Source of the DNA: a virus
Direction: 5' to 3' (one strand)
IMG/VR virus record: IMGVR_UViG_3300025540_000001
DNA length: 49,061 nucleotides
Shown here: piece after piece, positions 1-49,061 of the stretch
How the letters are laid out: each line of letters starts with the position of its first letter
Position numbering within the stretch: the stretch's first letter is position 1
Program-made: the position numbers and the translations under genes
Notes under the pieces: model-generated
What the model was told of the DNA's origin: nothing
What the model saw: only the letters and a program-made list of their open reading frames with translations
Database searches by the model: none

Positions 1-48
1 AACACCTTCCCAAGGTGTGGGTCGCGGGTTCGAGTCCCGTCTTCCGCT
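1..48 (+). tRNA. 3' part of tRNA-Gly(CCC), from the anticodon stem to the discriminator; the 5' part lies upstream of the window
   Basis: Anticodon stem ACACC/GGTGT (2-6/14-18) with loop TTCCCAA, giving anticodon CCC. Variable loop GGGTC, T-arm GCGGG-TTCGAGT-CCCGT, acceptor 3' strand CTTCCGC plus discriminator T. Near-identical to the Bacillus tRNA-Gly 3' half as I remember it. CCA is not encoded. Confidence 0.8.
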
Positions 49-58
49 TAAAGTTTAA

Positions 59-99
59 ACGCTCAAACCTCTTGATATAAAAGGGTTTGAGCGTTTTTT
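59..99 (+). terminator. Rho-independent terminator downstream of tRNA-Gly (inside the att repeat)
   Basis: An 11-bp stem ACGCTCAAACC / GGTTTGAGCGT (59-69 / 84-94) with a 14-nt loop, followed by a T-run to 99. It is duplicated at 48993-49033. Confidence 0.75.
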
Positions 100-134
100 G
101 CTTTTCAACAAATTGTAGCTCACGGAAGCACAAT

Positions 135-7054: not shown

Positions 7055-7195
7055 ATGAATATTTACGAAAAGGCTGAAATTATTCTGGAAGCATTGTCCG
7101 AATACATCAACGTCGACGATGAAGCTTTTCATGACATTTATATCAAAGCAATCGTCAATGGCTTGGTTGAAATTAGACAAAAAGAAAAGCAGTAA
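7055..7195 (+). CDS. Hypothetical small protein
   Basis: ATG at 7055 preceded by GAGGAG. In frame with track ORF 7001-7195. Confidence 0.5.
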   Translation: MNIYEKAEIILEALSEYINVDDEAFHDIYIKAIVNGLVEIRQKEKQ

Positions 7196-7273
7196 GAAGT
7201 TGGCGCTTCAAACTGCCTATAACGTTCACGCATGTAATTTACTCTTTCATTGTATCACAGTGAGGTGTGTTAA

Positions 7274-7456
7274 ATGAAGAAAAAACTGACTAACTATTCA
7301 AGCGTTGATCATCATTGGAAAAAGCTGCTAGGTTGCAAGTGCGGATGGTTCATTGAGACCACAGACGTGCTTCTCATTATCAAAGATTACAACCATAGCA
7401 GGCTAATAGATTACAGGCAAGAAATTAAGTCGAAACTAGGCGCAATGATCGCCTAG
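7274..7456 (+). CDS. Hypothetical small protein
   Basis: 60 aa. RBS GTGAGGTG upstream. Confidence 0.5.
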   Translation: MKKKLTNYSSVDHHWKKLLGCKCGWFIETTDVLLIIKDYNHSRLIDYRQEIKSKLGAMIA

Positions 7457-7513
7457 TCCGCCGGAGATAGCCTCCCGGCGCTGATGAGACAGGCTGCGGA
7501 AAGGGGCGAATCA

Positions 7514-7627
7514 ATGAAAATTAAAACAGGTGATTGGCTTAAACTGAATCGTTTTGAAAAGCACATATTGTTGTGTTTGGCAATTCAAGCTGGAAGGAGT
7601 GAAAAGAGTGAAACAGCCAGTGCTTAA
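7514..7627 (+). CDS. Possible 37-aa ORF not in the track
   Basis: ATG at 7514 preceded by AAGGGG at 7-nt spacing. Reads MKIKTGDWLKLNRFEKHILLCLAIQAGRSEKSETASA. It fills a gap in the operon. Confidence 0.3.
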   Translation: MKIKTGDWLKLNRFEKHILLCLAIQAGRSEKSETASA

Positions 7628-10048: not shown

Positions 10049-10864
10049 ATGGCCAATATATACAGAGTACAAAAGAACGGCAACTACGTCGTAATGAATA
10101 AAACATCGCTTATGGATGAAAGGCTGAGCTGGAAAGCGAAAGGGCTGCATGCCTATATGCTTTCTTTACCCGACGATTGGAGGTTTTATGACACAGAGTT
10201 GCAAAAACATGCTAAGGACGGACGCGACTCACTTCGGACTGCGCTTAAAGAACTGCGAGATCTGGGTTATTTAAAGCGGGTGCAGCACCGTAATGAGGAC
10301 GGGACATTCAACTATGAAACACTTGTTTTTGAAGTCCCTCAAATGGATCCACCGTTACCGGGAAAACCGTTGACGGAAAATCCGCTTACGGAAAAACCGT
10401 TGACGGATTATCCGTTGACGGAAAACCCGAAACTACTAAGTAATAATGAACTAAGTATTGATGAACTAAATAATAATGGACTAAGTAATAAAGCAGCTGC
10501 TGTAAATAAGCTTCTCAATCGATTTATAGAGTTAAGGAATCACGGATTTGTGGCTACCCCTAAGGATAAAGCAGCAGCAGCTGAGATCATCCAATACGGT
10601 GTCAATGTCGATGATGCAATCAAATGGATGGAAGAGAAATTTACGTCTTACCAGCCTAAACATCCAAAAGACTACATCAAGACGCTTGACTATTGCGCCG
10701 GATATATATTTGACCGGTTTATCGAGAAGCAGAAAGCAGAGAGAGGTGAAGACAATGGAACAAAGATTCCAAAGTATCGCGGAGGTTATGGCCGACCTGC
10801 TGGAAAAAGCGCAGAACAGGCAATCCGAGAAGCCCAAGAAGCAAGACGAGCATGGGGCGGATGA
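10049..10864 (+). CDS. Phage replication organizer / initiator (DnaD-like, wHTH N-terminal domain)
   Basis: 271 aa. N-terminal YVVMNKTSLMDERLSWKAKGLHAYMLSLPDDW, then the PLTENP repeat linker PLPGKPLTENPLTEKPLTDYPLTENP. Followed by a DnaC-like loader. Confidence 0.75.
   Translation: MANIYRVQKNGNYVVMNKTSLMDERLSWKAKGLHAYMLSLPDDWRFYDTELQKHAKDGRDSLRTALKELRDLGYLKRVQHRNEDGTFNYETLVFEVPQMDPPLPGKPLTENPLTEKPLTDYPLTENPKLLSNNELSIDELNNNGLSNKAAAVNKLLNRFIELRNHGFVATPKDKAAAAEIIQYGVNVDDAIKWMEEKFTSYQPKHPKDYIKTLDYCAGYIFDRFIEKQKAERGEDNGTKIPKYRGGYGRPAGKSAEQAIREAQEARRAWGG
10352..10425 (+). repeat. Five about-15-bp direct repeats (CCGTTGACGGAAAA-type) inside the replication gene; candidate origin iterons
   Basis: Units are ccgttaccgggaaaa, ccgttgacggaaaa, tccgcttacggaaaaa, ccgttgacggatta and tccgttgacggaaaa, read directly at 10352-10425. 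Confidence 0.55.
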
Positions 10865-13956: not shown

Positions 13957-14308
13957 GTTTCGGGCATGGGATGAGGAATTAGAAAGAATGTTTTATAGCA
14001 CTACTGAACAATTCGATGATTCTTTGTCATTTCGATTTAAACATTTTGAGACTGATGATCCGGTCTATATGCAATATACAGGCCTGCGTGACAAGAACGG
14101 CCGGGAGATTTATGAAGGAGATATCGTTAAGGCTGTAAGTCAAGGTTCACATGCAGTATGCACCGTCAAATGGGGACAAGGGATAGTAGGATTCTTTCTC
14201 CACGCTCCAGGAATATGTTGGAACTTGTCAGGTGGTGGCAAAGATTACGATCAAGAAACAGTAGAAGTTATCGGAAACATATACGAAAATCCGGAGCTAG
14301 TGAAATAA
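13937..14308 (+). CDS. YopX-family protein
   Basis: ATG at 13937 with RBS GGAGGGG. FRAWDEELERMFY...YTGLRDKNGREIYEGDIV...VIGNIYENPEL is the YopX pattern. Confidence 0.8.
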   Translation: MGNLRFKFRAWDEELERMFYSTTEQFDDSLSFRFKHFETDDPVYMQYTGLRDKNGREIYEGDIVKAVSQGSHAVCTVKWGQGIVGFFLHAPGICWNLSGGGKDYDQETVEVIGNIYENPELVK

Positions 14309-14365
14309 AAAAACCGGGTTCCCCCGGCTTGGTAAAGGTTGGTTACCTATATTTTACCATAGGGG

Positions 14366-14569
14366 GTGAACCCATTGGAAGCTAATAAAAAAATTATGAC
14401 AACTGAAATAGATTTAATGGAGACGGCTGTATATATCGTCCAGGATGGGCAGGTGACCAAAGTGACCCCAAAGCCGTATGGTCAGGATATCTTGATATGG
14501 CAGAACGGCAAGGTCTTTGATATAGAACGGATCGATCGGAAGAGGCTGATTGGGCAGGATGTCATATAG
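14366..14569 (+). CDS. Hypothetical small protein (start uncertain)
   Basis: Track ORF. Alternative starts at TTG 14375 or ATG 14396. Confidence 0.5.
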   Translation: MNPLEANKKIMTTEIDLMETAVYIVQDGQVTKVTPKPYGQDILIWQNGKVFDIERIDRKRLIGQDVI

Positions 14570-14584
14570 ATAGGGGTGAAACAC

Positions 14585-14758
14585 GTGAAACCAAAAACAC
14601 GACAAAAGGGCGATAAGTATCGGCCCGTCGTTACGGTGCTTAAAGTAAAGCGAGGTCTGCCCACAAAAATTATGGTAAGCGGACAAGAGTACGCGCTTAT
14701 CCACAAAAACCAGTATAGGGGAGTGAGAAAATGCGGGCTGAACGCTGCTACACATTGA
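14585..14758 (+). CDS. Hypothetical basic small protein
   Basis: GTG at 14585 lies 8-9 nt after AGGGGTG. Confidence 0.5.
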   Translation: MKPKTRQKGDKYRPVVTVLKVKRGLPTKIMVSGQEYALIHKNQYRGVRKCGLNAATH

Positions 14759-15195
14759 ATGAAGAAACAGAAATCCGGGTAGGGAATTGCTTCTTTACCC
14801 GAGATGATTTGATTTTGATGTATATCGACAGCGGCATGGATGTTTTAAGTTTAGCAAAATCATTGCGTATCGGGCGGCCGAGGATGGAGCGGATATTGGA
14901 CAAATTCGACATACCAAGAAACTGGCATGCAGAATTGACACCGCGGCATCTGCGAGTGTTGCGCTATATCAAATATTTTCAGACGCGTCACAAGCGCAGC
15001 CCAACAAACTTGGAAATCTCAAAAGCATTGAGGCTATCACCTGGTTGCACGAACTACCATCTCAAAAAATTAAAAGCACACGGGTATGTAAACTGGCCAA
15101 GGTACAGCAGTGGCACATTCAAGTTAACTGAAAAAGGGGAAAGGTGGTGCCGGAATGCCCACACATTTAATCTATTCGGCTTGGAAGAAGACTAG
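14731..15195 (+). CDS. LexA-N-terminal-like winged-helix DNA-binding protein
   Basis: 154 aa. LTPRHLRVLRYIKYFQTRHKRSPTNLEISKALRLSPGCTNYHLKKLKAHGYV resembles the LexA DNA-binding domain. RBS GGGGAGTGAG. Overlaps the next gene by 41 nt. Confidence 0.6.
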   Translation: MRAERCYTLNEETEIRVGNCFFTRDDLILMYIDSGMDVLSLAKSLRIGRPRMERILDKFDIPRNWHAELTPRHLRVLRYIKYFQTRHKRSPTNLEISKALRLSPGCTNYHLKKLKAHGYVNWPRYSSGTFKLTEKGERWCRNAHTFNLFGLEED

Positions 15196-16078
15196 GGATG
15201 AAAATGGGGTGATTAAGCAGAACACGAAAGACGGTAAAGGAAATGTAATCATCCGGGACATTAAATTTGTGGATCCGATTAAGGAAAAAGATATGGAAGA
15301 ACACGCCGGCCAACGCTTTCTATGTGGAGAGCCAATGACACAAGGAATGAAACTTAAGAAGGTATTTTCCAACGTGTTCACTGACTGGAACATTGCTAAG
15401 AATCCGGCCGGAACCCATGTATGTCCGGCATGCTGTTTCTCAATTTTGACCACGAAAGAACGATACGGATTGCGGACATTTTCAAATGTGGCGAATGAAG
15501 AAAGGCTTTGGCTGCCAAACCGGGTAGAGATGCGAGAATTTCTATTGCAGCCGCCTGATCCTCCATTTGTTATAAATTTGGCTGTTTCCCAGAAAAAGCA
15601 CATCGCTTTTAAGGGGGAAGTGAATTATTCCCGCGACATATTTACCGTCATGTACGAAGAAATGCCGGTGCTGATCGTTAGAAAAGAGTTTGAAAGTTTA
15701 CTTGCGTTGGTTGAACATTTTCTCTATGGATTTACGAAAACGGAGATAACAACCGGAGAATACAGTCAAAAACGGATTTTGGACTTTGGTATTGATGCTT
15801 GGGAAGCCTTTGAGGAACGGGTTAAGACGTACCGGGGCAACCCTATACTTGATGTCGTCATGTTTATTGCACAGAAAATTGAAAATGAGGAGGACTTGAA
15901 ATGTTTTATGGTTTCAGAACTAGGGATGAAAGTGCAGGAGCTGCCGCCTTACTTGTCTACGCCGTCTACCGCAGCCGAAACCGAAAAAGAGGGCCAAGTG
16001 GCATCGACATGTGGGGACAAATCGAACGGTTCACGAAAGTCAGCGCAAAGCGAGCAATTAGCGTTGGATCTTTTTTAG
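15155..16078 (+). CDS. Candidate Cascade large subunit (Csf1/Cas8-like by position) with a Cys cluster and a C-terminal QLxLxL tail
   Basis: 307 aa. First gene of the RAMP operon. Cys cluster FLCGEP...THVCPACC. A disordered S/T/E-rich tail ends in EQLALDLF-stop. No family motif that I can name with certainty. Confidence 0.4.
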   Translation: MPTHLIYSAWKKTRDENGVIKQNTKDGKGNVIIRDIKFVDPIKEKDMEEHAGQRFLCGEPMTQGMKLKKVFSNVFTDWNIAKNPAGTHVCPACCFSILTTKERYGLRTFSNVANEERLWLPNRVEMREFLLQPPDPPFVINLAVSQKKHIAFKGEVNYSRDIFTVMYEEMPVLIVRKEFESLLALVEHFLYGFTKTEITTGEYSQKRILDFGIDAWEAFEERVKTYRGNPILDVVMFIAQKIENEEDLKCFMVSELGMKVQELPPYLSTPSTAAETEKEGQVASTCGDKSNGSRKSAQSEQLALDLF

Positions 16079-16095
16079 AAGCCTTTAAACGGAAA

Positions 16096-16374
16096 ATGGC
16101 ATGCGAAACGATCAATCCTAAATGGTGTGATAGTGGCAGCAAGGTAATGACGGCCATACAAGATGAATTAGGGAACATTGTCATGACTGGGAATGAGCCT
16201 GACGGCGGGAACAGACAGTTTTTAACCGAGATTATGGAAAGCGGAAAAGACCAGGCCATCCTATATGAACTATACAAAGAAACCGCGCGGGTGATTATGT
16301 TAGTCCGGGACCGTCTAGAGAGAGAAAAACCGATTGAACACAAATTAGAAACCATTATTGAGGAGGAAAATTGA
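16096..16374 (+). CDS. Small subunit-like protein (Cas11-like by size and position only)
   Basis: About 92 aa from ATG 16096 (alternative ATG 16147). The track ORF 15901-16374 overlaps the upstream gene. Lies between the large subunit-like and Cas7-like genes. Confidence 0.35.
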   Translation: MACETINPKWCDSGSKVMTAIQDELGNIVMTGNEPDGGNRQFLTEIMESGKDQAILYELYKETARVIMLVRDRLEREKPIEHKLETIIEEEN

Positions 16375-16375
16375 A

Positions 16376-17332
16376 ATGAACCATTACCGTTTAGAAACCA
16401 TTTACACACTGCTGCAACCTTTAAGCCATATCGGGGAAAGCGAATCAACTCAAAGCTTTCTGAATACGACTACAGTCGTCAACGATGGAAAGCCGGAGGA
16501 AGTATTTGTTTATACGGGAAATGCTTTGAGAGGCATGCTGCGGGACTGTGGGGCGCGTTACTTACTAAACCGGTTAGATATTCGTGTCCCGTTAAAAGCC
16601 TTCCATCTGTTGTTCAGTGGCGGCTCAATCGGTGGTGCCCAGGCGCTGGATATCGATCAGGCGAAGGTAATTCGTAAAGCCCTGCCATTTGTGTCACTGT
16701 TCGGAGGAGGCGTCGGAAATCAGATTCTGGACGGCAAATTGAAGCAGACCTTTGTTTACCCTGTATGCAAAGAAACGAACAACATTATACCAAGTTATGT
16801 TGAAAAGTCCGACTATAGTTGGAGACATTTTACAAATGTGATTGAGTTTACCCGGAAAGATGACGAGAAGAATGTGAACCTTGCAGAGCAGTTTTTAATT
16901 GGACAAACTGAACAGCAGTTACTCGAGGGAGAAACCACCAAAAAGAAAAAAGAAAAAGACGGCCCAGCCACACAAATGCGGTATGCAGTTGAATATTTGG
17001 CAGCTGGCACGAAACTCTGGCACCGGTGGGATATCATTTGTGATGAGCTGGAACTCGGGGCGTTTGTTTCCTGTCTGCATGAATGGCAAAAGCAGCCTTA
17101 TCTTGGAGGAAAAAACGGATCCGGATTTGGACTTGTTCAAGCAGACATGGATGTGATTATTAATGGGGAAAGAAAGAAATTCGCCGATATTAGCCCGGAA
17201 ACCGTTTTCCTCGGAGAAATTGCAAAAAAAGCAAAAGAAACATATGACGCTCATCTTAAAGAAATGTACGACAATTATGTCATTGATAACAAAGAGGAGT
17301 TTACAAAGCTTTTGGCAGGCGAGGTGAAATGA
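16376..17332 (+). CDS. cas7: Cas7-like RAMP protein (Csf2/Csm3/Cmr4-like backbone subunit)
   Basis: 318 aa. ATG at 16376 with RBS GAGGAGG. RAMP signatures YTGNALRGMLRD, FVSLFGGGVGN and C-terminal glycine-rich loop YLGGKNGSGFGLV. Confidence 0.75.
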   Translation: MNHYRLETIYTLLQPLSHIGESESTQSFLNTTTVVNDGKPEEVFVYTGNALRGMLRDCGARYLLNRLDIRVPLKAFHLLFSGGSIGGAQALDIDQAKVIRKALPFVSLFGGGVGNQILDGKLKQTFVYPVCKETNNIIPSYVEKSDYSWRHFTNVIEFTRKDDEKNVNLAEQFLIGQTEQQLLEGETTKKKKEKDGPATQMRYAVEYLAAGTKLWHRWDIICDELELGAFVSCLHEWQKQPYLGGKNGSGFGLVQADMDVIINGERKKFADISPETVFLGEIAKKAKETYDAHLKEMYDNYVIDNKEEFTKLLAGEVK

Positions 17333-18012
17333 AGAATTTGAAGATCACGGCCCGTCTTTTGGACGGGCGCGTGAACTCCAATGATGGCATTTTTAATTTG
17401 GATAGTATCTTGGCTTATGCGTGGATGCTGGAAAATCATCCGGATGACTTGCAGAATAACAATTTACGGCCTGATAACGTAATTGAACCGGATTTGCCAC
17501 TGGCAAAGGATGAAGATGGCCGGTGGAAAGCATCCCTCGGATTTTACGAACAACATGCTGAAATCGTTGAGTATTGGCATAAAAAAGTAAACGACTTTGA
17601 CGCGGCCTATTATGTGGACTTCCAGGGCAAACGTGGCAAGATTAACGGTGCATCCGGTGAATATAAAGCTTATCGTATGCCACAAATAATACGGGTTGTG
17701 AGTGATATTGAATTTTATGCCGTCGGGGATCCTGACGAAATTCGGCGCCTACTTGGATATGTAACCAATATCGGTAAGAAAGCATCACAGGGCTATGGTT
17801 ATGTACGAGAATGGGCCATAGAAGAAATTGAAGACGACTATACGGATATCGGGCCATATGGAATTATGCGGACACGTCCATTTACAGGCGAGCTCCCGAA
17901 CGATGGACAAGCCTATCAAATTAAGAAAGTGCGTCTAAAACCGCCCTACCATTTACACATAGACCGGGTGCCATGCATTATCCCAAACGTGAGGAGAGAT
18001 CAGCTTGCTTAA
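17329..18012 (+). CDS. cas5: Cas5-like RAMP protein (Csf3-like)
   Basis: 227 aa. Start overlaps the cas7-like stop (ATGA). Glycine-rich loop NIGKKASQGYGYV. Position directly after Cas7. Confidence 0.55.
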   Translation: MKNLKITARLLDGRVNSNDGIFNLDSILAYAWMLENHPDDLQNNNLRPDNVIEPDLPLAKDEDGRWKASLGFYEQHAEIVEYWHKKVNDFDAAYYVDFQGKRGKINGASGEYKAYRMPQIIRVVSDIEFYAVGDPDEIRRLLGYVTNIGKKASQGYGYVREWAIEEIEDDYTDIGPYGIMRTRPFTGELPNDGQAYQIKKVRLKPPYHLHIDRVPCIIPNVRRDQLA

Positions 18013-18721
18013 AATAAAACTTCCTGTCCAATTTGACGACGGAAAGGCTATGTATGATGCGGTATTGGCGATCATTCATAAGCAGTCTCCTGTGCTGTCT
18101 AAAATGATTCATGATAACTACGATTACAACCCATTTAGTGTTGAGTTACCTAATATTGTAAATGTTATAGGCTTAGAGATTGAACCATTTTTTAAAAACC
18201 TGAATGGTATCGAAATATTAAGAGAAGTGTCGTATAAGGATTTAATGAACAGAAAATATGATAATCTGACAATTATGGTACAGTTTCACAATACGACGTT
18301 TTCCCGAAAAGGTTATGACACGCCTATTCCGGATCCAAACCATATTCTTTTAAGCCTTAAAGAGCGTTGGAATCAGCTTTTTCCGGATAAAATCGATATC
18401 AAAATTCCATTTCATGGAGAAAATACAAGGGAATATACGGTAATTAAATTCTTGAATATCCATTCGGCAGCACACAAAATAGCTGACTATCGGCCATACA
18501 CCGTTTTTTATGGCAAAGTGGGATTTAAATTTTACGGAGACGAGGCATACGTTCAAAAAGCAAATATTCTTTTTCGGTTTGCTGAATTTGCGGGTGTTGG
18601 ACTTAAGCGGCAAATGGGAATGGGGGTTACAAAAATATTGGCAAAAGGGGACGTGAAAACAAATGATGACAGAAGCAGAGAAAGAAACGTACATGCTGCG
18701 TGCGACGCTGCCGGGATTTAA
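18005..18721 (+). CDS. cas6: Cas6-like RAMP protein
   Basis: 238 aa. TTG start with RBS GAGGAG. N-terminal MLKIKLPV...IHDNYDYNPFSVEL (the Cas6 H...kPFtfS pattern). C-terminal FAEFAGVGLKRQMGMGV glycine-rich loop. Confidence 0.65.
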   Translation: MLKIKLPVQFDDGKAMYDAVLAIIHKQSPVLSKMIHDNYDYNPFSVELPNIVNVIGLEIEPFFKNLNGIEILREVSYKDLMNRKYDNLTIMVQFHNTTFSRKGYDTPIPDPNHILLSLKERWNQLFPDKIDIKIPFHGENTREYTVIKFLNIHSAAHKIADYRPYTVFYGKVGFKFYGDEAYVQKANILFRFAEFAGVGLKRQMGMGVTKILAKGDVKTNDDRSRERNVHAACDAAGI

Positions 18722-19439
18722 AAGAAAAGTATCAAGAAGTTTAGAAATTATTCGCGAAGCACTGGCAATAGAAGGCATTAAGTGGTCTGCATCCGTTAGT
18801 TTTGGTAAAGATAGCCTTGTAATGCTCGATTTGCTAAGTCAAGTGATGGACGAAATACCCGTTTATTTTATGGACAGTGATTATAAACTCCCAGAAATAT
18901 ATGAAACTATTGAAAAAGCACAAGAAAGATATAAAATAAATATTAGTAAGGCCTATTTCGCAGACAGGCGCCCGATGAAAGAAGTATGGGATCAATTCGG
19001 GATCCCGGGCATTAACCGAACTACATCCATGCAAAATAAGGCACTAAAAGTATTAAAGAAAGACGTTTCCGACAGATGGGCAAAAGAAAATGGATACAAC
19101 GGTATCTTTTGGGGTATCCGCAAACAGGAGTCCAGTCAACGGAAATGGATGGTCACATCATTTGGCGTGACATTTGAGAATAAGCAAGGATTTTACCGGT
19201 GCGCCCCCCTAGCCTATTGGGATGCCAGTGACATCTGGGCGTACATCGTATCGAGAAACTTGGATTATCCAAAGCTGTATGATTACCAAAAGTATCAAAC
19301 CCGTGATTGGATCAGGAATACCGGTTGGGCAACGACAGACGGGGCAGAACGCGGCCGAATCGTTTGGCTTCGTGAATTTTACCCAAACTACTACGACGAA
19401 TTACGGTGGATGCTGCCGAAAATAGATGAATACATTTAA
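18663..19439 (+). CDS. PAPS-reductase-family / CysH-like PP-loop protein
   Basis: 258 aa. PP-loop variant SVSFGKDS. Motifs WGIRKQESSQR and RCAPLAYWDASDIWAYIVSRNLDYPKLYD. No C-terminal ECGxH-type redox Cys motif is visible. Overlaps the cas6-like gene by 59 nt. Confidence 0.8.
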   Translation: MMTEAEKETYMLRATLPGFKRKVSRSLEIIREALAIEGIKWSASVSFGKDSLVMLDLLSQVMDEIPVYFMDSDYKLPEIYETIEKAQERYKINISKAYFADRRPMKEVWDQFGIPGINRTTSMQNKALKVLKKDVSDRWAKENGYNGIFWGIRKQESSQRKWMVTSFGVTFENKQGFYRCAPLAYWDASDIWAYIVSRNLDYPKLYDYQKYQTRDWIRNTGWATTDGAERGRIVWLREFYPNYYDELRWMLPKIDEYI

Positions 19440-19456
19440 GTCCGAGGGAAGAACCC

Positions 19457-19510
19457 AGGACGCTGAATTTGCACGCTTTGTGCTGATTTAGCGTCCTTTT
19501 TTATTTTTTT
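19457..19510 (+). terminator. Strong intrinsic terminator closing the RAMP/CysH-like operon
   Basis: AGGACGCT (19457-19464) pairs with AGCGTCCT (19490-19497). A nested GCAC/GTGC hairpin sits inside. Followed by TTTTTTATTTTTTT. Confidence 0.8.
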
Positions 19511-19523
19511 AGGAGGAAACCAA

Positions 19524-19712
19524 ATGGGCACATTACAAGACGAATTGAAAAAATGGGAAAAGCAGAATCCAAACAAAGGGAAAAAGCCACGAGGAAAGCC
19601 AAGAAAGTCGAAATCAGAGCATTTAAGCGAACGTGAGATAAAAGATCTTATGGGATATTATGATCCCGTATATAAGCGAGGGAGAGGCGGAGCATGGAGA
19701 AATGGAAGATGA
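19524..19712 (+). CDS. Small highly basic protein
   Basis: 62 aa. RBS AGGAGG. K/R-rich (KGKKPRGKPRKSK). Confidence 0.6.
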   Translation: MGTLQDELKKWEKQNPNKGKKPRGKPRKSKSEHLSEREIKDLMGYYDPVYKRGRGGAWRNGR

Positions 19713-20170
19713 ACAAGCAAGAAATCTCACAGGCATTAAAGGATTATCATTGGATGATCAACGAAATCAAGAGACAGCGCAAAATGCTGGAGAATGAAGT
19801 GAGAAGCAACATCACATCCCAATATGGGGAAGAATCCGCCTTACCGAATCCAAAAGGAACAAATAGTGATCCGGTTTACCGTGAAATTTTACGTCGGGAG
19901 AAGACACATCAATGGATTAATCGGTTGCAGAAGAAAGTGCTGTTTATTCAGGAACATGTTGATTGCGTGCAAGGAGAACGCGAACGTGCCGTGCTGGAGT
20001 GCCTGCTGGACGGAATGAGCGTCATTGCCATTAGCCGACATATGGGGCTATCAGAACGGAATATTCGGGCCATCCGTGCCAATATTGTGGACACGATGTA
20101 TGAAAATGCCGGAAATGCCGGAAATGCCGGAAATGCCGGTTTTGCCGGAAATGCCGAGATTGCCGGATAG
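19694..20170 (+). CDS. ArpU/RinA-like late transcription activator (sigma-70 region-4-like HTH) with a C-terminal (NAG)n tail
   Basis: 158 aa. ERAVLECLLDGMSVIAISRHMGLSERNIRAIRANI is a region-4-type HTH. Located just upstream of the packaging genes. Alternative start at 19709. Confidence 0.65.
   Translation: MEKWKMNKQEISQALKDYHWMINEIKRQRKMLENEVRSNITSQYGEESALPNPKGTNSDPVYREILRREKTHQWINRLQKKVLFIQEHVDCVQGERERAVLECLLDGMSVIAISRHMGLSERNIRAIRANIVDTMYENAGNAGNAGNAGFAGNAEIAG
20105..20167 (+). repeat. Seven tandem 9-bp units (AATGCCGGA-type), in frame at the 3' end of the activator gene
   Basis: Three perfect AATGCCGGA units, then AATGCCGGT, TTTGCCGGA, AATGCCGAG and ATTGCCGGA, then the stop. They encode NAGNAGNAGNAGFAGNAEIAG. 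Confidence 0.9.
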
Positions 20171-20399
20171 ATGAAGTACAATAAAAAATATGTGTAAAAT
20201 GGAAGGCAGGACCGGAGAGGAAAAATCCGGGGCGTGAGAAATTTCATGAAACCCATGATTCACCTTGCGGTGAACAATACCGAGTTCGGGATATGCGCTT
20301 ATGCCATAAGGGTTTCAAAGCTTTGTAATTTTAGTACTTTTATATGCTCATGGCCCTTTCGAAAACTGATATACTTATCGTTATCGGAGGGGGAAATAT

Positions 20400-47007: not shown

Positions 47008-47400
47008 CTAAATATTTGTTTCCCAGGCATCCACAGTTGCTTTCATAGCTTCCATGGCATGTTTTTTTGTGGGAAAATGTTCTATGCCGGATTCCCCGTC
47101 ATCGACATTGTAAGACGGAACTTCATCCGCATACGGATATTCCGGTCCCCAAGCGAAGAAGTAATTTCCATTTTCGGCCTTCCCGACGGCGTAGGCCTCG
47201 CCGTTATTTGGGAAGTTGTCACGCAATTCAACGATTTCTAATACCTCCACTTTCAACTCCTCCTCTTTTTCCTCTACATATTTCCTCATCAATTGTCGGA
47301 TGACTTCACTCTTGTTTTGCATCAGTGCTTCATTTACGCGGTCGAACCGATCAAGAAGGTCCTGATCAATCCTGTATTGCCTCGTACGTTTCACTTTCAT
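47008..47400 (-). CDS. Ribbon-helix-helix (CopG-like) N-terminal domain protein with an unknown C-terminal domain
   Basis: 130 aa from ATG 47400 with RBS GGGAGG. The track ORF is extended to 47481. KRTRQYRIDQDLLDRFDRVNEALMQNKSEVIRQLMRKYV fits an RHH pattern. Confidence 0.6.
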   Translation of the reverse strand: MKVKRTRQYRIDQDLLDRFDRVNEALMQNKSEVIRQLMRKYVEEKEEELKVEVLEIVELRDNFPNNGEAYAVGKAENGNYFFAWGPEYPYADEVPSYNVDDGESGIEHFPTKKHAMEAMKATVDAWETNI

Positions 47401-47437: not shown

Positions 47438-47466
47438 TTGACATGATAAAAGTTTGTGATTATAAT
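47438..47466 (+). promoter_or_regulatory. Perfect consensus sigma-A promoter with no downstream plus-strand ORF
   Basis: TTGACA (47438-47443), 17-nt spacer, TATAAT (47461-47466). Divergent from the RHH gene. Confidence 0.7.
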
Positions 47467-47472
47467 TAGTCC

Positions 47473-47604
47473 ATGAACCATAACACAGGGTGTATTTAAA
47501 TAGTATCTTTTTAATTAATTAACCTGTGCTATTTTTTATTGAACCGTAACATGAGATGTAAGGGAAGAGGGAGCGAACATAAATCCGCTCTCTTTTCTAT
47601 TTTT
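47473..47604 (+). ncRNA. Candidate about-130-nt non-coding transcript (promoter to terminator)
   Basis: Predicted start about 47473. Weak hairpin CACAGG/CCTGTG plus T-run at 47484-47540. Stronger 11-bp hairpin at 47565-47596 followed by CTATTTTT. Only tiny RBS-less ORFs lie inside. Confidence 0.3.
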
Positions 47605-48106
47605 CCGGTTTCCCGAATTTTTCCGTAAGCGCAGTTTCTGATATAAACGTATAGGCGCCGTTACTTTTAAAATGGCCATCCGGATAATCGGCGCCGTCTA
47701 TCTCTTCCACCGATATGCCCCAAGTTTTTGCGGCATCCTTTGCTTCCCACACCTTAATGCCAAGTGGTTTAAAAGTTTTTCGCATTTCCCGGTACATTTC
47801 GTATGCTTCCGCGCGATTCTTTCGTTTGTTATTACGTTCTGCTATTATTTCCTTTATTTTATCGGCAGCCGCCAGAAACTCATCTTCATCTACTTCCCAC
47901 GTTCCAACCGTTTTATAATCTGTTTGTAGTCTAGATTCGCTGTTGTCGAAAGTGGTTGACGGTAAAACCTCCCCAAGGCTGAATATGTAATCTTCCTTAA
48001 CGGCATGTTCGACAATCGCAAATGCCTCGGCAGCTTTTGGTGTCCCCTTTACAAGCTCCGGGTAAACAGTTTCGGAATAAGACGTTTCTTTATACACAAT
48101 TTTCAT
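47597..48106 (-). CDS. Hypothetical cargo protein
   Basis: 169 aa. Second gene of a two-gene minus-strand operon. RBS AGGAGG. No motif recognised. Confidence 0.65.
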   Translation of the reverse strand: MKIVYKETSYSETVYPELVKGTPKAAEAFAIVEHAVKEDYIFSLGEVLPSTTFDNSESRLQTDYKTVGTWEVDEDEFLAAADKIKEIIAERNNKRKNRAEAYEMYREMRKTFKPLGIKVWEAKDAAKTWGISVEEIDGADYPDGHFKSNGAYTFISETALTEKFGKPEK

Positions 48107-48934: not shown

Positions 48935-49061
48935 AACACCTTCCCAAGGTGTGGGTCGCGGGTTCGAGTCCCGTCTTCCGCTTAAAGTTTAAACGCTCAA
49001 ACCTCTTGATATAAAAGGGTTTGAGCGTTTTTTGCTTTTCAACAAATTGTAGCTCACGGAA
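48935..49061 (+). repeat. attR: right copy of the 127-bp direct repeat (a tRNA-Gly 3' fragment, not a full tRNA)
   Basis: Identical to 1-127. The sequence upstream of 48935 (ttcctaaattgcct) cannot form the tRNA acceptor or D arm. Confidence 0.85.

Follow-up and report, generated by a model that had tools for sequence, protein, structure and literature searches.

The window analysed here, the whole 49,061-nt stretch of IMG/VR record IMGVR_UViG_3300025540_000001, is the genome of a temperate siphovirus-like phage of the Heyndrickxia/Weizmannia coagulans (Bacillus coagulans) group. It carries a phage-borne type IV-B CRISPR-Cas effector operon, csf1-cas11-csf2-csf3, joined to a gene for Cas6 and to the signature partner of the subtype, a CysH-like protein of the CasCysH type. 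We make this identification with high confidence: the six family assignments, obtained by PADLOC and Pfam profile searches, were all judged to be well beyond chance. As the best explanation overall we put forward, at moderate confidence, this identity together with an RNA-scaffolded mechanism. On the mechanism taken as a whole, in which a nuclease-free Csf complex would be scaffolded on RNA, possibly tethered to the replisome and equipped with an adenylating CysH-like enzyme, we are almost evenly divided and lean slightly towards doubt.

Type IV-B systems consist of csf1-cas11-csf2-csf3 with cysH and have been described on plasmids 'and sometimes prophages', including those of Firmicutes (Pinilla-Redondo et al. 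2020, PMC7038947). Rare IV-B loci with Cas6, 12 instances in all, were counted there as exceptions within IV-B, and two type IV operons have been reported inside prophages of W. coagulans DSM1 (Aulitto et al. 2022, PMC8954581). The novelty that the initial annotation of this DNA attached to the locus does not hold in that form, as IV-B operons in prophages (those of W. coagulans DSM1 included) and IV-B operons with Cas6 were both already in print; our finding thus correctly rediscovers a variant that is rare and was already known. It is probably the same variant, in the same host group, as the 12 published loci and the DSM1 operons. The passages of the two papers that deal with such loci do not treat Cas6, the overlap of csf1 and cas11, the Csf1 tail or the position in the phage genome. 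The function of IV-B is still listed as unknown in reviews up to 2025, and we found no paper in the later literature that characterises it.

Six genes of a type IV-B operon

Csf2 matched the PADLOC profile Csf2_0_IV at E = 8e-67 and PHROG 22746 at 1e-53. Searched as a profile against the Protein Data Bank (PDB), it matched Csf2 of the IV-B complex 7jhy (4.5e-19) and the chain named Cas7c in 11fs (1.3e-25). Its homologues are 316 to 318 aa long, which fits the assigned ATG start. Csf3 was recognised by PADLOC at 9e-42 and by PHROG 34599 at 8e-37, and Csf1 by the PADLOC profile Csf1_0_IV at 5e-36. The type IV equivalogs of NCBIfam were matched at 1e-17 to 1e-21, by Csf1 (TIGR03114, 2e-17), Csf2 (TIGR03115, 1.7e-21, with a curated cut-off of 130 bits) and Csf3 (TIGR03116, 1.5e-20). 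In each case the score was under the curated cut-off, and the module proteins are therefore diverged members. The significant profile matches of csf2, csf3 and cas6 bear out the repeat-associated mysterious protein (RAMP)/Cas7/Cas5/Cas6 identity that had been suggested for 16376-18721. The initial annotation had called the module 'IV-B-like or intermediate', with a retained Cas6. IV-B and Cas6 stand, but 'intermediate' fails because every core gene has its highest score against a type IV profile and the CysH partner shows the features published for CasCysH.

Cas6 matched its Pfam family, CRISPR_Cas6, at 6e-13, and its 49.8 bits are well over the gathering score of 25. Its AlphaFold2 model, with a predicted local distance difference test (pLDDT) score of 84.6, gave full-length Foldseek matches to Cas6 crystal structures with E to 2e-11 and template modelling (TM) scores of 0.6-0.69. 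The top fold matches were T. thermophilus TTHB231 and TTHA0078, S. thermophilus Cas6 and the type IV Cas6 6njy. The Csf1 model (pLDDT 83.2) had two significant fold matches only in the PDB, 7xg1_A and 8rc3_G, both chains of type IV-A effector complexes; the match is given at the level of the complex. Structural comparison had been proposed initially as a check, and in these two cases it agreed with the assignments. The Cas6 fold comprises two RNA recognition motifs with a C-terminal glycine-rich loop, G197xGxK..GxG207. This loop, His36, Lys119 and Trp122-Asn123 were invariant in 13-18 homologues. His36 sits in helix 29-37 and is the predicted catalytic residue; the H37A mutant of a T. thermophilus Cas6 is among the fold matches (4c97), the correspondence of that residue with His36 being putative. 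The presence of Cas6, encoded between csf3 and cysH, departs from the usual Cas6-less IV-B. Recent capture of the gene from a host I-B system was considered and is not supported: the family forms 17 clusters in a large protein database, compared with at least 581 for Csf2, and its best profile matches (~1e-13) are to generic Cas6 profiles only.

The CysH-like protein matched its Pfam family at 1.5e-28 and aligned with E. coli CysH, the 3'-phosphoadenosine 5'-phosphosulfate (PAPS) reductase (1sur/2o8v). It has the PP-loop SFGKDS at a site where the loop of CysH is degenerate. Among 92 module-linked CysH homologues, SxGKDS was present in 91 and the catalytic cysteine of the ECGLH type in none. 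A PP-loop that is kept while this cysteine is never present agrees with CasCysH as described in the literature, where it is predicted to act as an ATP alpha-hydrolase or adenylating enzyme and not as a reductase (PMC8175902). Judged by these motifs, the CasCysH encoded here is a PP-loop ATP-pyrophosphatase-like enzyme without a redox cysteine.

The small subunit had initially been given as a protein of about 92 aa, which proved too short: cas11 starts at 15901. The PADLOC profile (1e-37) spans residues 1-156 of the product, and the first 65 residues (MFYGFRT..LLVYAVYRSRNRKRGP..DMWGQIERF) are conserved, including in loci where csf1 stops before cas11 begins. Therefore cas11 overlaps csf1 by 178 nt, out of frame. 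In this overlap (15901-16078) the csf1 genes of the window's clade extend 59 codons further in the other frame. DNA conservation is 73-92% in the overlap compared with 63-86% in either flank, and third-position differences in the cas11 frame amount to 0.51 outside and 0.28 inside it. Such a deficit of third-position differences is the signature of two frames under selection, that is, of a dual-coding constraint.

The other junctions are equally compact, with a gap of 1 nt between cas11 and csf2 and overlaps of 4, 8 and 59 nt at csf2/csf3, csf3/cas6 and cas6/cysH, respectively. The six co-directional open reading frames (ORFs) with tight or overlapping junctions described in the initial annotation were thus found on the + strand where it had placed them, and the strong terminator that it put behind them was confirmed by folding and by conservation. 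The RNA of 19436-19515 folds with -31.5 kcal/mol (z = -5.4) into a hairpin of 13+4 bp that is followed by a U-run, and relatives retain it with compensatory changes in the stem. This hairpin was also considered as a substrate of Cas6 and rejected, being equally conserved in a relative that has no Cas6 (L055). The reading frames of all six genes are intact. Their ratios of non-synonymous to synonymous substitution rates (dN/dS) against relatives are 0.02-0.16, at a dS of ~1 or saturated in most comparisons; these low values indicate purifying selection and a function that is maintained.

The ORFs annotated at ~0.1-29 kb and 45-48.5 kb include no cas1, cas2, cas3, cas4 or cas10 gene and none for DinG, RecD, an HD nuclease or an HD-Cas10-like large subunit; the initial annotation had likewise found no cas1, cas2, cas3, cas10 or dinG-like gene. 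In this respect the module resembles the plasmid-borne IV-B system of the Mycobacterium sp. JS623 megaplasmid (PDB 7JHY), which has the same four core genes in the same order, a CysH-like partner with the PP-loop and without the catalytic cysteine, and neither adaptation genes, nuclease, helicase nor adjacent array. The window module differs from it by its Cas6, its location in an early phage operon and the long disordered Csf1 tail with a clamp-like end, which the Rhodococcus plasmid Csf1 lacks. With type IV-A (DinG, Cas6/Csf5, array) and IV-D (RecD, Cas6, array) it shares the Csf1-Csf2-Csf3 core and Cas6; as noted above, the Csf1 fold matches chains of IV-A complexes and the Cas6 fold a type IV Cas6, 6njy. 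Unlike these systems it has no helicase or adjacent array, and it has Cas11 and CysH, which are absent from type IV-A.

We surveyed 35 genome loci and 79 viral loci with Csf2 relatives, annotated by iterative hidden Markov models. A Csf2 relative is encoded on 106 IMG/VR contigs, with 33-90% identity among the 79 loci kept. Nearly all surveyed loci have csf1-cas11-csf2-csf3-cysH. Cas6 of the window's family occurs in 17 loci, at three different gene positions, and a Cas6 of either family (Cas6 or Cas6e) in 28 of 115 related loci, which suggests that genes of the Cas6 type are no great rarity in this clade of phages. The second family is a Cas6e/Cse3-family gene (PF08798, 2e-30) lying between csf2 and csf3 in 11 further array-less IV-B loci (L026, L029, L032, L034, L067, L068, L070, L078, L079, L082 and L094; for example L094:10960-11535), several of which have the gene order cas11-csf2-cas6e-csf3-cysH-csf1. 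In two relatives with Csf2 ~75% identical to that of the window (L041 and L055), csf3 is directly followed by cysH and there is no Cas6; Cas6 was therefore gained or lost within the clade. The best Csf2 match reaches 95% identity, and Cas6 shares 92% identity with a protein encoded on a 3.37 Mb H. coagulans contig. The database relatives at 89-95% identity come from H. coagulans genomes, and in public sources they already bear the names Csf2 and Cas6. Csf2 proteins from plasmids (Rhodococcus, Mycobacterium) are mostly 27-29% identical to that of the window, at best 37.5%, which places the window in a mainly phage-borne IV-B clade. The window DNA had no match among known phages, and by protein only Skermania phage SPI1, among known phages, encodes a Csf2 relative, which is unannotated.

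Our own array scan across all surveyed loci found CRISPR arrays only in L012, L080 and L105. The conserved non-coding DNA of Cas6-bearing loci is common to close relatives only and contains nothing repeat-like. Three further observations were made in this set. The viral locus L080 (9217-15740) combines an IV-B-like module that includes cysH with a Cas6 (14037-15023) and a neighbouring CRISPR array of at least 4 repeats (from 15526). A conserved protein of ~310 aa, multi-pass membrane by the look of its sequence and without a Pfam or PADLOC match, follows directly after cysH in nine loci (L003, L008, L021, L028, L048, L049, L052, L053 and L066; for example L052:13247-14185) and is absent from the window. 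A twister-sister ribozyme scoring above the Rfam gathering score lies at L048:14701-14771, ~1.6 kb downstream of another Cas6-bearing IV-B module.

In the phage genome, the module is the last block of the rightward early/replication cluster, and its terminator lies just ahead of the late regulator. Gene order and strand thus uphold the initial description of a module embedded between replication/recombination genes and the late activator. The winged-helix gene directly upstream overlaps csf1 by 41 nt. We found no terminator-like site on the + strand from 11.5 kb to the operon terminator and no strong promoter match before csf1. From this placement, and from the lack of an upstream terminator or strong promoter, co-expression with early/middle genes is a fair inference. 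The operon could alternatively be a defence moron that is expressed in lysogeny and keeps out other phages or plasmids. Type IV-A systems take part in competition between elements, and PADLOC counts these families among defence systems. Against this stand the lack of a strong promoter match of its own and of an upstream terminator, its position inside the early/replication block with the 41-nt overlap, the same placement in many unrelated phages, and the fact that the true accessory region of the phage is elsewhere, at 46.8-48.5 kb and 1.4-4.7 kb on the opposite strand. We consider a moron very improbable.

The zinc ribbon and the C-terminal tail of Csf1

The tail of Csf1 is encoded by 15938-16075 (+) and overprinted on cas11. 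Residues 262-298 have a pLDDT below 50 and are predicted to be disordered. The protein ends in EQLALDLF, in which the motif QLALDLF (16055-16075) resembles a beta-clamp-binding motif; the bacterial consensus is QL[SD]LF (PMC12867686). Database homologues of Csf1 terminate in EQL[AQ]L[DE]LF, QQLALF or QQLELF, and more distant relatives have QLSLF, QLTLF, QLALF, QLGLF, QLVLF, QLDLF or QMEMF at the C-terminus or a few residues from it. The terminal motif was found both in loci with the cas11 overlap and in loci without it. To quantify this, a related, mostly phage, set of 109 Csf1 proteins from the surveyed loci was used. A motif of the clamp-binding type was present in the last 12 aa of 35 of them; when the proteins are clustered at 60% identity, it occurs in 20 of 59 clusters. 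Among the 1625 other proteins encoded by these loci, 10 had this pattern, which corresponds to a ~50-fold enrichment in Csf1 C-termini, and 0.55 matches were expected from shuffled Csf1 tails. The tail is absent from short Csf1 proteins and from the Rhodococcus plasmid Csf1 that was compared.

Tn7 TnsE and translesion polymerases are clamp-binding proteins. A terminal QL[SD]LF-like peptide is likewise present in MuC of phage Mu, where it recruits the factor to DNA-loaded beta clamps (PMC12867686); a corresponding recruitment by Csf1 is putative. We found no literature that links a CRISPR-Cas subunit, or Csf1, to the sliding clamp. On the strength of the motif, the Csf1 tail is a candidate beta-clamp-binding peptide that would tether the Cas6-loaded Csf filament and the adenylating CasCysH to replicating DNA. 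We regard this as possible and, on balance, doubtful. The QLxLF-like end may instead serve for docking to a different partner, such as CasCysH, Cas11 or one of the phage's replication proteins, a reading to which we also assign a rather low probability. Short hydrophobic peptides at the C-terminus commonly act as docking motifs, the window's QLALDLF deviates from the canonical clamp consensus, and many Csf1 relatives that lack the motif still keep CysH. On the other hand, many Csf1 proteins have exact canonical ends (QLSLF, QLDLF, QLGLF, QLVLF, QLALF, QLTLF), and a terminal motif behind a disordered linker is the standard architecture of clamp binders (consensus in PMC12867686).

The zinc ribbon of the window's Csf1 has an unusual residue. 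Codon 15314-15316 (+) is CGC and encodes Arg54, at the first cysteine of the CxxC...CxxC ribbon. Position 54 is cysteine in 107 of 109 locus homologues, as well as in those database homologues whose printed segment spans the site, and the window copy alone has arginine. Three of the four zinc-ligand cysteines are kept, and C54R corresponds to a single T-to-C change. It may stem from an error in sequencing or assembly, or be a change that is either tolerated or harmful. If it is a defect, this copy could belong to a decaying operon in which C54R inactivates the large subunit of an otherwise functional family. The conservation of the cysteine speaks for such an impairment; the six intact frames and the low dN/dS against relatives, and the fact that one substitution might be an error or tolerated, speak against it, and we think it improbable.

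The database homologues of Csf1 P0138-P0177 carry the precomputed Pfam family PF27781, for which the local Pfam copy gave no match with the window's Csf1. PF27781 is probably the Pfam family that now covers this Csf1 clade.

A mini-array and other features of the phage genome

A normal CRISPR array was not detected in the 49 kb by Tandem Repeats Finder (TRF) and two repeat searches. The initial statement that the window has no array is therefore right for a normal array; it missed a two-unit mini-array (47472-47567), which lies in a cassette with its own promoter and terminator (Table 1). Strains 2-6, H-1 and P38 of W. coagulans have the type I-B repeat GTTGAACTTTAACATTGGATGTATTTAAAT (PMC8954581, Table 4). 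Unit 1 matches this repeat at 23 of 30 positions, with an identical 3' end of 11 nt that includes the 8-nt handle AUUUAAAU and with the stem kept by a compensatory pair. Unit 2 matches it at 20 of 30 positions; it retains the hairpin and has lost the handle. The same cassette is present in 4 IMG/VR contigs, always adjoining a gene for a 169-aa protein (47597-48106); the spacer is identical in 3 of them and differs by one base in the fourth. We found no target of the spacer in the window or in IMG/VR, phage or plasmid collections. A link between the mini-array and IV-B was considered and rejected on the lists of carrier contigs: as the carriers are mostly without IV-B, the cassette is an independent accessory element.

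The cassette most resembles published viral CRISPR RNA (crRNA)-like anti-CRISPR RNAs and mini-arrays that use host Cas proteins. Like Racr (PMC10651486), Cracr (10.1101/2024.10.29.618823) and the elements in PMC6858448, it has its own promoter, a host-like repeat and a spacer-like segment, followed by a degenerate second repeat and terminator, in an accessory region beside a small gene resembling a ribbon-helix-helix (RHH) regulator. It differs from these RNAs in that no target of its spacer, such as a rival phage or a host cas promoter, was found in the window or in the IMG/VR, phage and plasmid collections, and its activity is putative. The RHH gene, divergent from the mini-array (47008-47400, -), encodes a 130-aa protein with an N-terminal RHH domain (Pfam RHH_1); its start is at 47400, behind a GGGAGG ribosome-binding site, and not at 47481. 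The protein might serve as an Aca-like regulator, or else as an anti-CRISPR partner. A viral IV-B locus with CysH and a repeat-spacer-repeat mini-array in the same genome is known from Fuxivirus, a Bathyarchaeia virus (PMC10848311). There the mini-array is inside the cas locus, whereas that of the window is 28 kb away in the accessory region, of the host I-B repeat type and independently inherited.

Use of the mini-array also by the phage Cas6/Csf complex is possible but unsupported. In its strongest form this would be a guide-dependent, single-spacer system, in which Cas6 would cut the mini-array and the one 36-nt spacer would program the Csf complex to silence or mark a target in a competitor or the host. 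Both elements occur together in this genome and in IMG/VR contig 2630968535_000001, the exact 8-nt handle of unit 1 and the hairpin of unit 2 are what one mature crRNA requires, and the published archaeal virus locus as well as L080, with its Cas6 and 4-repeat array, provide viral precedents. Against it, the mini-array and the IV-B module are inherited independently and no protospacer was found. The perfect sigma-70-type promoter and the place in the accessory region by the attachment site suit expression in the lysogen and use by host I-B Cas proteins, and the cassette resembles viral anti-CRISPR RNAs (10.1101/2024.10.29.618823; PMC10651486). We judge a single-spacer system to be quite unlikely.

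Table 1. Positions of the operon genes, the flanking gene blocks and the mini-array cassette in the window
Feature	Position	Strand	Remarks
csf1 (type IV large subunit, Cas8-like)	15155-16078	+	307 aa; zinc-ribbon core, disordered tail, C-terminal motif
cas11 (type IV small subunit)	15901-16374	+	157 aa; PADLOC Cas11_2_IV
csf2 (type IV Cas7 backbone subunit)	16376-17332	+	318 aa; ATG at 16376
csf3 (type IV Cas5)	17329-18012	+	227 aa; PADLOC Csf3_0_IV
cas6 (Cas6-family endoribonuclease)	18005-18721	+	238 aa; TTG start; Pfam PF10040
cysH-like (PP-loop protein, CasCysH type)	18663-19439	+	258 aa; Pfam PAPS_reduct
Intrinsic terminator at operon end	19457-19510	+	Fold energy and conservation in relatives
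Left end		-	Integrase, SNase-like nuclease, ImmA-like protease, CI-like repressor
Rightward genes before the module		+	Ant, RecE/RecT, DnaD-like and DnaC-like loaders, resolvase, HNH protein, YopX, winged-helix gene
After the module			GerE/ArpU-like late regulator, ParB-methyltransferase, terminase, portal, capsid, lysis genes, then leftward accessory region
Whole mini-array cassette	47438-47605	+	Separate element, 28 kb from the IV-B module
Promoter TTGACA-17-TATAAT	47438-47466	+	12/12 positions, sigma-70-type
Repeat unit 1, CATGAACCATAACACAGGGTGTATTTAAAT	47472-47501	+	Rfam CRISPR-DR3, 33.3 bits, under gathering score (permissive scan)
Spacer, 36 nt	47502-47537	+	
Degenerate repeat unit 2, ATTGAACCGTAACATGAGATGTAAGGGAAG	47538-47567	+	
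Mini-array terminator	47563-47605	+	

An exact direct repeat of 127 nt lies at both ends of the window (1-127 and 48935-49061) and includes the 3' part of a tRNA, not a full tRNA. As read from the sequence, it could represent either att (attachment) sites or an overlap left by the circular assembly of a phage genome, and as both would fit, the initial designation as a prophage is not established. A type II hammerhead ribozyme (39.4 bits, above the Rfam gathering score) is located at 7428-7498 (+), within 400 nt of non-coding DNA (7165-7568) that is 88-99% conserved in two relatives (L036 and L037). Two sets of 15-nt iteron-like tandem repeats at 10351-10491, within the gene for the DnaD-like replication initiator, are probably the phage origin. 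Seven copies of the 9-nt tandem repeat AAATGCCGG (20104-20167) encode an (N/F)AG repeat, which forms the C-terminus of the product of the late regulator gene (19694-20170). Downstream of this gene, non-coding DNA at 20180-20273 is 94-97% conserved in three relatives (L002, L036 and L037); a late promoter or a small RNA may lie here.

Possible action of the complex

The mechanism we propose is an RNA-scaffolded one, set in the lytic phase. Csf2 and Cas11 would form intertwined filaments on RNA, like those of the solved IV-B complex (PMC7937560). Cas6 would provide a hairpin-delimited RNA and cap its 3' end, and Csf3 and Csf1 would cap the 5' end. As there is no array in cis, the RNA would have to be supplied from elsewhere; candidate sources are host CRISPR transcripts, the I-B-like mini-array of the phage or another hairpin RNA. 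A complex without nuclease or helicase would act by binding. The flexible Csf1 tail (QLxLxLF/QLxLF) might tether it to beta sliding clamps loaded on DNA and thereby to DNA under replication. CasCysH would adenylate a substrate on the nucleic acid that is bound, and in this way activate or modify it. Overall, the complex would serve in counter-defence, or in competition with other mobile elements during replication, and not in adaptive immunity. The roles proposed in the initial annotation, namely RNA-guided interference, host takeover and nucleic-acid modification, are speculative.

Several observations weigh against this proposal. The solved IV-B complex held heterogeneous RNA, with no enrichment of crRNA (PMC7937560), and IV-B has been reported to be negatively correlated with other CRISPR systems (passage in PMC7038947). 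Scans including Rfam found no array or repeat-like unit within 10 kb of the module here or in six other Cas6 or Cas6e loci. As to the mini-array, IV-B is present in only 1 of 4 other carriers of the cassette, and the closest IV-B/Cas6 contig is without it. Clamp binding is put forward from a motif match, the window's own ending (ALDLF/QLALDL) is not the canonical QL[SD]LF, and about two-thirds of Csf1 relatives, like the Rhodococcus plasmid Csf1 compared, have no clamp-like motif. Expression timing is deduced from gene order. Finally, C54R affects a zinc ligand, and therefore this particular operon may be impaired.

The same set of genes could also serve as a decoy. In this alternative, the phage Cas6 and Csf proteins would bind, process or compete for host CRISPR transcripts and so blunt I-B/I-C interference; crRNAs would be locked in a nuclease-free complex, and recognition of a target would be unnecessary. 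The capture of crRNA has been published as a hypothesis for IV-B (PMC7038947, PMC8175902). A Cas6 that keeps its predicted catalytic histidine where no array lies in cis implies that the substrate is provided in trans, and the two Cas6 families over 28 of 115 loci suggest matching to different host repeat types. Furthermore, the host species has I-B and I-C systems (PMC8954581), and an RNA on the same phage that mimics the host I-B repeat makes counter-CRISPR pressure plausible. Capture leaves the strictly conserved CysH partner and the Csf1 tail motif unexplained, however, and the passage that raised it deemed it unlikely because of the complexity of the system (PMC7038947). The absence of crRNA enrichment in the solved complex counts against it as well, and the phage Cas6 is only distant kin of any characterised Cas6 (best profile E ~1e-13). 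We regard crRNA capture as unlikely and retain the RNA-scaffolded mechanism as our proposal.

IV-B is the least understood CRISPR-Cas subtype, as regards the RNA, the target and what CysH does in it. The locus leaves the classification unchanged. The placement of the module recurs in many unrelated phage contigs, where DnaB typically lies ~6 kb upstream, and 4-8 kb downstream there are HNH, TerL, portal and protease genes. The survey suggests that IV-B is commoner in phages than reviews imply and lies there at a fixed genomic position. New here are the Csf1 tail motif and the mini-array, two testable leads on IV-B function. If the candidate clamp-binding role of the tail is true, a coupling of a CRISPR-Cas effector to the sliding clamp would have been found for the first time, and it would be a mechanistic entry into IV-B function. 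The locus provides a natural model of compact size in the H. coagulans group, whose strain DSM1 has been reported as amenable to genetic work: a temperate phage IV-B system with its own Cas6, a candidate crRNA-like RNA in trans and a Csf1 tail that resembles a clamp binder.

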